DNA from: Eubacteriales bacterium
Lineage (GTDB): Bacteria; Bacillota; Clostridia; Christensenellales; CAG-138
Length of the DNA: 64,000 nucleotides
Assembly (NCBI GenBank): GCA_034933205.1
Contig: JAYFNY010000012.1
Location: forward strand, 10,671 to 74,670
Reading direction: 5' to 3'
The notes under the pieces were generated by a model that did no database searches, was not told the origin of the DNA, and saw only the letters and a program-made list of their open reading frames with translations. The stretch's first letter is position 1; each line of letters opens with the position of its first letter. The position numbers and the translations under genes were made by a program. Positions 61,930-63,721 of this stretch are shown piece by piece.

Positions 61930-62564
61930 CAGAAGCCAAACAGGGAAATCTTCGCATCAGCCAATTCTTCCTTTAGATTGATGTGCTTAATTGCCCAATG
62001 CGTATGATTCATTTCTGATATGCCTCTCGTCATATCTAACATGCCAAGTTCAAAACCAATATTGCTTATTTGCTGCATGGGAATGGGCCACAGTAACTGA
62101 CATCGTATTTTGACTCCGTTATCCTGCTTTCTTATTCCATCAACAAAGCCAAAGAATACTTGCTGATTTTCTCCAGCCCTTGCATGTTGAAATTCTGCCT
62201 CTGGCATGAACAGCGCTGGAAAGGTTTTCATTGCCTCAACTGCAGTCTCAGACAAAGTGCCATACCGTTCCCGAAGCTCCTCTGATGTCCAATATCTCGA
62301 TAACGCACGATCTGCTGGAACTATGAAATGATCATATTCAAAAGTCTCATCACCAATCACAAATAAATTGTAATATTCTGGATTGATGACTCGGCTGGTC
62401 GGCTGCATGGTTCCATTTGCCATTCTCTGCACATATGGAAAATTTATGTTTATATTCTGTGTTACATTTTCAGCTGTATCAATATGTACATTTTTCTCGC
62501 CATACTGATTTACTGTTTTTGCCGGTAAGCCAACACCAGCTATCGTTTGTATTTCATCTTTCAT
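61929..62564 (-). CDS. Hypothetical protein (211 aa), middle gene of the ATPase cassette
   Basis: GGAGGTG RBS. Its stop overlaps the ATPase start (TGATG). Contains VNQYGEKNVHI near the N-terminus and EMNHTHWAIKHINL near the C-terminus. No family recognised. Confidence 0.6.
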   Translation of the reverse strand: MKDEIQTIAGVGLPAKTVNQYGEKNVHIDTAENVTQNININFPYVQRMANGTMQPTSRVINPEYYNLFVIGDETFEYDHFIVPADRALSRYWTSEELRERYGTLSETAVEAMKTFPALFMPEAEFQHARAGENQQVFFGFVDGIRKQDNGVKIRCQLLWPIPMQQISNIGFELGMLDMTRGISEMNHTHWAIKHINLKEELADAKISLFGF

Positions 62565-62578
62565 AGGCTCACCTCCGC

Positions 62579-63721
62579 TCAGAGCTTCAAATTATCAACA
62601 TGTTCAATATGAACATTCTTTTCACCGTACTGATTTACAATAGTCGGATTGTTGATTATTTGAGTTCTTACACCATCTCCTGCTGCATCTGCGGCACCTG
62701 ATGATTCTTCGTCCACAGTCTCTGCTTCCACTGGCTCTGCCTCATCCTGCTTTGCCTCCTCTGGAATTGGATACAACCTTCTATATAATTCTGCCATTGC
62801 AAGCCTTAATTCATGTGATTTCGGTTGGAGAACATTTCTTAGACGGTCACCATCTTCGGCCGATTCATTTCTAAACCACAATCTATCCGTGCCAGGTATC
62901 AGACGCAAAAACTCATCAGACACATAATAGGAGTACTCTTCCATAGTTTGTGTCATATCGATTACAAGCTGACGGAAAGCGATATCCTCAATCTCGCGCA
63001 GGTCGTACTGCCACTTCCGATGCACGCTGTGCAATTCATCTGCCAGACTAATTTTTGTCTGTTGTGCTGCAGGATCGTTATCTATACAGTATTTCAAAAG
63101 TCCTTTTACATCTTTTTTGAATTGACAAAGTAATCCCTTATCTGCATCCGAAAGTAGACCCGGCTTTAATACCGGGATGCTTTTTGCTTTAGCAGTCTGT
63201 TCTTGTTCCTCCGTCAATCCATTCACAGCCCCGGCCCAGGCCTTTGCCATCGCTTCCCCAGAGGCGAGAATTTTTGCAGTCAATTTATCATGCGCGGATG
63301 TAGTCGTTTCCTCGCTTGTTTTCTTTTTGCTCGCAGCCTTTGGCTTTGCCATAGCAGCTTCATAAATAATAGAAGCAAACAACTCTGCCAGTTTCTGACT
63401 CGCATTATATGGTGTGATATTCGGAATGGCTTCTTCAAATAAACTACAGAGTCCTTGAACAGCATTATCCGGGAAAGAATCAATATATTCTTCAAACGCT
63501 GACGTCTCCACGTTGGCGTTTATTTTTTTTGCTGTTTTCGTGATGTTGTTTGTTCCATTGTAGTAGGCCTTGAAAGTCGAAGGCTTTAATTCCTGAATCG
63601 GATTCAAAGCTTCATCCTCATAAACAACGATGGTATCAAGCAGTGTGCGAGCGAAGGCACTTGTGTTACTACCGGAGCCAATCACTGAATATACGCGCTG
63701 AGCGAAGTCACAAAACACCAT
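62579..63721 (-). CDS. Hypothetical protein (380 aa), first gene of the ATPase cassette
   Basis: ATG at 63721 lies 11 nt after GGAGG. Helical N- and C-domains are joined by a Lys/Thr/Ala-rich linker, followed by an acidic tail that ends in VNQYGEKNVHIEHVDNLKL. No family recognised. Confidence 0.6.
   Translation of the reverse strand: MVFCDFAQRVYSVIGSGSNTSAFARTLLDTIVVYEDEALNPIQELKPSTFKAYYNGTNNITKTAKKINANVETSAFEEYIDSFPDNAVQGLCSLFEEAIPNITPYNASQKLAELFASIIYEAAMAKPKAASKKKTSEETTTSAHDKLTAKILASGEAMAKAWAGAVNGLTEEQEQTAKAKSIPVLKPGLLSDADKGLLCQFKKDVKGLLKYCIDNDPAAQQTKISLADELHSVHRKWQYDLREIEDIAFRQLVIDMTQTMEEYSYYVSDEFLRLIPGTDRLWFRNESAEDGDRLRNVLQPKSHELRLAMAELYRRLYPIPEEAKQDEAEPVEAETVDEESSGAADAAGDGVRTQIINNPTIVNQYGEKNVHIEHVDNLKL

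Follow-up and report, generated by a model that had tools for sequence, protein, structure and literature searches.

In a 64,000-nucleotide stretch of a Eubacteriales bacterium (assembly GCA_034933205.1, contig JAYFNY010000012.1, positions 10,671 to 74,670; hereafter "the window"), we analysed two adjacent genes of a candidate defence locus, called gene 1 and gene 2. The proteins they encode have the peptide VNQYGEKNVHI in common, which lies at the C-terminus of the gene 1 product (the "tail") and at the N-terminus of the gene 2 product (the "head"). In related loci the sequence of this peptide varies, and tail and head resemble each other more closely within a locus than between loci. We therefore consider it probable that the gene 1 tail and the gene 2 head pair directly, by one mode or another, whether as a triggered or as a constitutive connector. 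Tail and head are most likely one cognate, self-matching beta-forming motif that binds the two proteins together. The more specific reading, namely a triggered coupling of a separate effector to a sensor-side module that resembles amyloid signalling, is one that we regard as evenly poised.

A peptide shared by two adjacent genes

The two genes and their shared elements are arranged as follows.

62579..63733, minus strand: gene 1, putative effector, 384 residues counted from a GTG codon, with all-helical domains and a disordered C-terminal tail
62654..62758, minus strand: acidic low-complexity linker (gene 1 residues ~326-360) between the helical body and the tail, with a predicted local distance difference test score (pLDDT) below 50
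62582..62653, minus strand: tail motif NNPTIVNQYGEKNVHIEHVDNLKL, gene 1 residues 361-384, at the end of gene 1
62588..62638, minus strand: 17-residue core of the tail motif, within the gene 1 tail
62606..62638, minus strand: gene 1 copy of the identical 11-mer, residues 366-376
62565..62578, minus strand: intergenic spacer between gene 1 and gene 2, 14 nucleotides, holding a GGAGGTG ribosome-binding site, read from the sequence
61929..62564, minus strand: gene 2, candidate sensor-side partner, 211 residues, with a disordered head-bearing N-terminus and a beta-rich domain
62463..62513, minus strand: head motif core VNQYGEKNVHIDTAENV, gene 2 residues 18-34
62481..62513, minus strand: gene 2 copy of the identical 11-mer, residues 18-28

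A preliminary description of this DNA had reported the identical peptide and five synonymous differences between its coding stretches, and we confirmed both. The 33-nucleotide copies differ by TAC/TAT, GGT/GGC, GAA/GAG, AAG/AAA and GTT/GTA, all of which are synonymous third-position changes. The likeness extends over 17 residues, VNQYGEKNVHIEHVDNL in gene 1 and the head core given above in gene 2, whose N-terminal sequence is MKDEIQTIAGVGLPAKTVNQYGEKNVHIDTAENV, and it stops at the motif borders. Of the 476 stop-to-stop frames of at least 60 residues in the window, no other two have an 11-mer in common, and a hidden Markov model of the motif detects only these two copies across the 64 kb. The agreement is far beyond chance. 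A second shared 10-mer (7934..8174) is trivial, being a GC-rich near-palindrome in two non-coding frames.

The ribosome-binding site lies 7 nucleotides 5′ of the gene 2 ATG. Since gene 2 thus has its own ribosome-binding site, and is parted from gene 1 by a stop codon and the spacer, it is translated on its own, and a single mis-split gene is ruled out. Gene 1 probably begins at 63721, with an ATG four codons 3′ of the listed GTG (63721..63733), because a database homologue with 99% identity (P0055) starts there, with MVFCDF.

Conservation and co-variation of the motif

Scans of one-genome-per-species and metagenome collections yielded 127 loci with gene 2 homologues. Alignment-score and codon statistics refer to 81 non-redundant loci, and counts of ATPases and of upstream proteins refer to a wider set (116 loci for the ATPase). 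In nearly all loci that have an upstream gene, the last 20-25 residues of its product match approximately residues 18-35 of the gene 2 homologue. Alignment of homologues, which the preliminary description had proposed as a check, showed that the motif is kept on both sides in about 100 loci found through gene 2, where it is situated some 20 residues from the end of the upstream protein. Each locus holds exactly two copies. The genes of a pair are separated by -11 to +16 nucleotides in most loci. The full motif is about 17-24 residues long, and VNQYGEKNVHI is its core.

TVNQxGEKNVHID is retained near the N-terminus of gene 2 homologues with identities as low as 43%, and V18, N19, Q20 and G22 are invariant or nearly so in 26 homologues over this range. 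When tails and heads are aligned jointly, they fall into a single register of about 17 residues, h-N-Q-x-G-x-x-N-h-x-I-x-x-h-[DE]-x-h. Within this register, clades have their own versions of the motif. The version VNQNGEKN[IV]HI is common to both copies, and other clades pair ISGGNNSF with VSGGNNNF, IPNYGTININ with IPNYGTVNIN, QYGNNGTQIG with QYGNDSTQIA, and NSGANVMQINNTGTINF with NSGDNVTQIANNQGGTINF. In a further pair, QRAEKIVNI and QQAEKIVNV, an A replaces the otherwise near-invariant G in both copies. Matched changes at the same position comprise this change of G to A (L026-28 and L033), Y/N, H/Q/N/F at position 10, and I/L to F.

Local alignment scores of cognate pairs average 55, compared with 22.6 +/- 4.4 in composition shuffles, and the score lies above the 99th percentile of the shuffles in 86% of the 81 loci. 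There are at least 15 motif types. In a comparison of 15 of them, cognate tails and heads are identical at 7.7 of 17 positions and non-cognate ones at 4.4 of 17, and not one of 100000 permutations of the partners reached the observed total.

As a separate observation on the head, an insertion of 10 residues 5′ of the motif repeats a PAT.V preamble (NLPATEVPAANVPATVVNQ) in four loci (L051, L053, L054 and L001; homologues such as P0017).

Portability of tail and head

The tail occurs on at least three unrelated protein bodies. Many upstream proteins resemble gene 1 over residues ~325-384 alone. Their bodies form two unrelated classes, 15 of them window-like and 87 of a "PYLCGGTFF" type that has no family match, and a library search added a third type of tail-bearing body (P0068). 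The middle helical domain of tail-bearing proteins is optional. A phmmer search with the last 34 residues of gene 1 against 1.84 billion representative proteins gave 20 matches, all 20 at the extreme C-terminus, and a profile search with 44-residue tails against an index of 5.8 billion proteins returned only short fragments of gene 1 homologues.

The head, in turn, has two kinds of carrier, gene-2-type proteins and CTD6 proteins of the ABC-3C/Lamassu kind. A set of loci identified from gene 1, rather than from gene 2, provided an independent check. In two loci of the NFNLTNNGT type (L128 and L137), the tail NVIQNGENNFNLTNNGTMNFNF is followed by a 215-residue gene-2-like protein with QQTGTNNFNVTNQ.GGTVNFNI and then by an AAA_13 ATPase. 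In L133, L135 and seven IMG/VR contigs (L143-149), the next gene encodes a protein of about 233 residues that carries a matching head and Pfam CTD6, and the loci continue with MC2, an AAA_23 ATPase and HTH_26. CTD6 is an effector docking domain of ABC-3C systems. One of these loci, L135, pairs the motif type of the window itself, with TIVNQYGDHPVHIDHVENLKL as the tail and QVNQYGSKSIHADHVDNM as the CTD6-side head. The pair of Streptococcus phage Javan105, a prophage of Streptococcus constellatus (MK448667, genes 0053-0056), is FIFNQSGSGVNIGQATNV with YKFEQSGQGTNIGLAQNV.

There are also relatives that lack the motif. The gene 1 homologue P0104 in L131 (5001..9194) is a natural control, in that a globular C-terminus of about 110 residues replaces the tail, and its partner is a 933-residue UvrD/AAA_30 helicase that lacks the head motif. 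This would be a different sensor on the same effector body. In addition, two plasmid-encoded proteins fuse a gene-2-like domain, from residue 2, to a TIR domain (TIR_2, or CAP12/Pycsar TIR).

L140, 4998..5879: gene-2-domain-TIR fusion, WP_124014597, Pseudomonas plasmid
L141, 4998..5912: gene-2-domain-TIR fusion, WP_047517977, Vibrio plasmid

These fusions bear on the earlier suggestion that the peptide is a scar left by fission of an ancestral fused protein, for which fused versions were to be sought. One part of this suggestion agrees with the CTD6 loci, where the motif pair lies exactly at the point at which Lamassu LmuA divides into an effector and a CTD protein. The fused relatives that we found, which join a gene-2-like domain to TIR, have no motif at all. 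Because fused relatives are found without any motif, we interpret the motif as a functional coupler and not as a leftover linker. The fusions further suggest that gene 2 contains an independent sensor or regulatory domain, since its globular domain is also N-terminal in single-chain TIR proteins (29% identity to the N-terminal domain of TIR proteins, E-value 4e-13).

Architecture of the two proteins

The AlphaFold2 model of gene 1 has confident all-helical domains at residues 1-130 and 190-325, a disordered linker at 131-185, and a disordered region at 326-384. The linker that precedes the tail (residues ~326-360) is acidic and variable in homologues. Both head and tail are disordered in the monomer models, and a low-confidence hairpin at gene 1 residues 367-374 gives a slight hint of beta propensity. 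Residues 5-149 of gene 1 match the PADLOC LmuA model, over the N-terminal part of that model only (E-value 2.3e-22). Apart from this, gene 1 matches one PHROG of unknown function and no Pfam or NCBIfam family, and its model has no significant fold match in the PDB. Gene order, the N-terminal LmuA match and analogy with known systems lead us to propose gene 1 as a putative killing effector.

Gene 2 has no family in Pfam, NCBIfam, PADLOC or PHROGs scans, and neither the Pfam scan nor the structure model contains an NTPase domain. In the model, residues 1-35 are disordered (pLDDT below 50), and residues 40-211 form a beta-rich globular domain. Against the PDB, this domain gives PUA-like matches (YTH 6zot with E-value 9.5e-4, Lon-N and McrB-N) at template modelling (TM) scores of 0.32-0.41. 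Because the fold similarity is weak, the assignment of a PUA-like fold is tentative. A search of the gene 2 model against viral structures gave no match.

Proposed mechanism and alternatives

The most likely mechanism is the one known for amyloid signalling motifs (HET-S/NWD2, BASS and Bab/Agp). It would begin with a resting state in which both motifs are disordered ends on flexible linkers. Upon sensing of infection, the sensor side, which would be gene 2 with or without the ABC ATPase encoded downstream, would cluster, so that heads meet and take on an in-register stacked beta fold. The stacked heads would recruit or template the identical tails of effector molecules, and the helical effector domains would thereby be clustered and switched on. 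We infer direct contact between head and tail, a stacked beta (amyloid-like) geometry, and triggering by oligomerisation.

Several properties of the motif fit such a mechanism. An in-register parallel stack would be expected to favour identical residues at matching positions of the two partners, as seen here. The motif is enriched in N (4.3-fold), Q (1.7-fold), V (1.6-fold), I (1.5-fold) and G (1.4-fold), and its content of L (0.34-fold), P (0.14-fold), K (0.5-fold) and R is reduced. Some types have a G-phi-Q-phi-G core, for example GIQIG in L036 and L046. TIR effectors must oligomerise to be active. The sensor side studied here plausibly oligomerises too, by analogy; in V. cholerae LmuA with CTD7, the C-terminal domains tetramerise on activation (PMC12663957; 10.1101/2025.03.14.643221).

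Other observations weigh against an amyloid-like, triggered coupling. The motif type of the window (NVHID) lacks the G-phi-Q-phi-G core, and a comparison of ten tails and heads with Pfam at E-values up to 10 retrieved no RHIM, HET-s or other amyloid motif family. The receptor belongs neither to the NLR/STAND nor to the TPR proteins, the host bacteria are unicellular members of the Bacillota, and the Pfam scan and PDB fold search recognised no toxic domain in gene 1. Mutual information at the same position exceeds the background only modestly (0.67 on the diagonal versus 0.40) and is confounded by shared ancestry, and the analysis of mutual information by column does not separate parallel from antiparallel pairing. 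Some residues are specific to one side: at position 14, tails have V and heads have A, and heads also have A at position 12. A purely homotypic stack would need no such difference.

The alternative that survives best is a constitutive, non-amyloid connector, although we consider it unlikely. In that case, a closed 1:1 beta-zipper of head and tail would restore a divided LmuA-like protein from its effector and its docking domain. We are similarly doubtful of the corollary that activation would occur as in ordinary Lamassu via the docking domain, in the absence of templating or polymerisation. Such a connector accounts well for L133 and L135, in which the head is on a stand-alone CTD6 protein followed by MC2 and AAA_23, such that LmuA is divided at the motif. 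It would also explain the consistent differences between the sides (V versus A at position 14), and the 1-nucleotide overlap of the gene 2 stop codon with the ATPase start codon suggests a stoichiometric complex. However, a closed heterodimer needs only complementary sequences and not the same residue at the same position. It also leaves the composition bias and the RHIM-like core of some types unexplained, and the motif is disordered in the monomer models, which have no confident hairpin.

In the preliminary description, one reading of the peptide was a tag that lets both proteins bind the same site, for example on the ATPase. More generally, both peptides could dock to one site on a third protein, for instance to the two equivalent sites of an ABC ATPase homodimer. 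The ATPase gene is directly downstream of gene 2 in 88 of the 116 related loci, and the Lamassu complex is built from single LmuA and LmuC subunits and two LmuB subunits (10.1101/2025.06.23.660979), so a symmetric dimer with two identical sites would fit. Yet at least 17 loci, each with at least 2.5 kb of downstream sequence, lack such an ATPase over ~6 kb of both strands (it could be encoded elsewhere in the genome), and these loci keep intact genes and matched motifs. The ATPase thus appears as an optional third component. Moreover, the same motif type is found next to an ATPase of another family and with another kind of head-bearing protein, and a shared host target would not yield at least 15 locus-specific types. 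Together, the ATPase-less loci and the CTD6 partner argue for mutual recognition of the two peptides over binding to a common third surface. Docking to the ATPase is ruled against as the main explanation by these loci and by the set of CTD6, MC2 and AAA_23 partners, and we judge docking to any third protein to be improbable.

It is very improbable that the peptide is a shared address or degradation signal, in which case a host factor (a protease, a membrane site or a chaperone, for example) would read one short linear motif on both proteins. The motifs are short, terminal and disordered, as such signals could be, but a signal read by the host should stay constant per host group, and the motif instead varies between close loci and is matched within them. 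It is also lost exactly where the effector is fused to the sensor domain.

Scarcely credible, lastly, is a phenomenon at the DNA level, either repeated gene conversion between the copies or, as the preliminary description had considered, a recombination joint for shuffling modules: the tail is on at least three unrelated bodies and the optional middle domain has been gained and lost, but 5 of 11 codons differ in the window pair, likeness ends at the motif borders, and codon identity is 44.2% over 812 identical-residue positions in the 81 loci, against an expectation of 43.6% if codons are chosen independently from each locus's own codon table. Codon identity at the level of chance rules out gene conversion and implies selection on the peptide itself, which upholds the earlier claim of purifying selection on both copies. 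Synonymous sites between the two copies are saturated, and the recombination joint has no support in the DNA; the tail is nonetheless modular at the protein level.

Comparison with known systems

The BASS1-10 families comprise pairs of genes for a Bell-domain effector and an NLR, with motifs rich in N, Q, G, V and I and poor in K, P and L (10.1101/2020.01.06.895854). The loci described here resemble BASS and the fungal HET-S/NWD2 pair in several ways. The genes are adjacent, a short motif is located at the effector C-terminus and the receptor N-terminus, the copies are closer within a pair than between pairs, and there are many motif families. The composition is biased in the same direction as in BASS, the motif is predicted to be disordered, which is a further published hallmark of amyloid signalling motifs, flexible linkers flank it, and some motif types, though only some, have the G-phi-Q-phi-G core of BASS3/RHIM/PP. 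Like Bell and HeLo effectors, gene 1 is all-helical in its model. On the other hand, gene 1 is not a recognisable Bell or HeLo domain, and in place of an NLR the receptor is either a beta-rich protein of 211 residues or a CTD6 protein of the Lamassu kind. Unicellular Bacillota and their phages are the hosts here, in contrast to filamentous Actinobacteria or Cyanobacteria, and the motifs have no sequence match to the curated motif families of Pfam.

A closer counterpart in some respects is Bab/Agp (BASS11), an abortive infection system of E. coli for which fibril formation and motif-dependent defence have been shown experimentally (10.1101/2024.11.07.622273). Both are antiphage gene pairs with a motif of about 20 residues on the C-terminus of a small helical effector and on the N-terminus of a non-NLR sensor, and both are located in defence islands or prophages. 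An NLR is therefore not obligatory for an amyloid signalling pair, since the Bab/Agp sensor (TPR-GreA/B-C-PIN) is not one. Our system differs in its sensor, its effector and its motif sequence.

In Lamassu/ABC-3C systems, LmuA is an effector with one of CTD1-12, LmuC corresponds to MC1-8, and LmuB is an SMC/Rad50-like ABC ATPase with a coiled coil and often a CxxC zinc hook. The loci studied here have the same order of effector, small protein and coiled-coil ABC ATPase with a CxxC hook-like motif, are likewise in a defence island, and give weak matches to the PADLOC models of LmuA (N-terminal part) and LmuB. The sister loci L133 and L135 have true CTD6, MC2 and AAA_23 genes. By contrast, gene 1 and gene 2 of the window match no Pfam CTD or MC family, and the ATPase of the window has its best matches in AAA_13 and PDC-S06 rather than in LmuB proper. 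In addition, the docking module is a protein of its own, which the motif would join to the effector, an arrangement that we did not find described in the Lamassu literature searched. That search also retrieved no paper linking Lamassu with amyloid.

A final comparison is with the effector-associated domains (EADs) of NTPase-based conflict systems, reportedly defined by Kaur, Burroughs, Iyer and Aravind in 2020. EADs are said to act by homotypic recruitment: the effector and the core or sensor protein encoded at the same locus each carry a copy of the module, which resembles the arrangement of tail and head. However, EADs are reportedly globular, helical, Death-like domains of ~80-100 residues, in contrast to the disordered, beta-prone and non-helical peptide of 17-24 residues found here.

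Implications

Tentatively, Bacillota and their phages could have a diversified and previously unrecognised family of prion-like, amyloid-type signalling motifs, which joins new helical killers non-covalently to at least two sensor machineries. If so, it is conceivable, with the same reserve, that these machineries are the PUA-like sensor, accompanied or not by an RloC-like ABC ATPase, and true Lamassu sets of CTD6, MC2 and LmuB. Were this true, amyloid templating would be at work within SMC-type immunity, and there would be an explanation for Lamassu systems that seemingly have no effector domain. In Lamassu "Clade O", the LmuA effector domain has "seemingly" been lost (PMC12663957). The CTD6-only proteins with head motifs in L133 and L135 suggest that the effector of Clade O may instead be the neighbouring upstream gene with a matching tail, should these two loci be representative of that clade.

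So far, motifs shared by effector and receptor have been associated with NLR/Bell pairs in multicellular bacteria and with a single E. coli system. The same genetic signature is now seen in gut Clostridia, streptococcal prophages and IMG/VR viral contigs, where it is attached to systems with Lamassu/ABC-3C-type and AAA_13 ATPases and to uncharacterised helical effectors. This suggests a testable wiring rule for defence islands, according to which genes with matching terminal motifs act together. The motif types, at least 15 in number, also resemble a naturally occurring set of protein connectors that exclude one another, and they are possible tools.

Neighbouring genes and defence setting

The following features flank the two genes.

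63868..63896, minus strand: promoter-like site 5′ of gene 1 (TAGAAA, 17-nucleotide spacer, TG-TATAAT), a consensus match only
59629..61929, minus strand: ABC ATPase with a coiled-coil insert, 766 residues, Pfam AAA_13 (E-value 1.3e-122)
61786..61809, minus strand: Walker A motif GNNGTGKS within the 766-residue ATPase
61126..61137, minus strand: zinc-hook-like motif CPYC at residue 265 of the ATPase
59405..59617, minus strand: HTH_26 (Cro/C1-type) regulator, the next gene after the ATPase

In PADLOC, the ATPase matches PDC-S06 (E-value 2.5e-208) and, more weakly, LmuB (E-value 4.3e-15). A homologue in Streptococcus phage Javan105 (L142, 5364..7625) carries the annotation "translation-disabling ACNase RloC". 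Proteins of the RloC/PrrC type are recognised by a C-terminal anticodon-nuclease domain with a conserved catalytic R/E/H triad. In the comparison of the window ATPase with the PADLOC PrrC model, the ATPase part alone matches. Across 27 homologues, a C-terminal NV.R.IL.YYF..CGY and a terminal Q.QHY.MM are kept, and the E of the triad is less than 90% conserved.

The HTH_26 gene is located 3′ of the ATPase or helicase gene and 5′ of a restriction-modification or BREX module in every system examined (the window, L129, L131, L133, L135 and L137), and it resembles a controller gene for the system that follows. The defence hotspot that it marks is conserved and lies beside mobile-element D5 primase and Bro/ANT genes. 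In the window, the HTH_26 gene is followed by a type-3-like BREX set with BrxF, BrxC, a methylase, an SNF2 helicase and PglZ. The brxC gene (DUF6079; 53789..58964, minus strand) seems to be split into an N-terminal part (55965..58964), which corresponds to profile positions 1-967, and a C-terminal part (53789..54619), which corresponds to positions 971-1238. A gene for a ClC chloride channel (54660..55904, PF00654) sits between these two parts.

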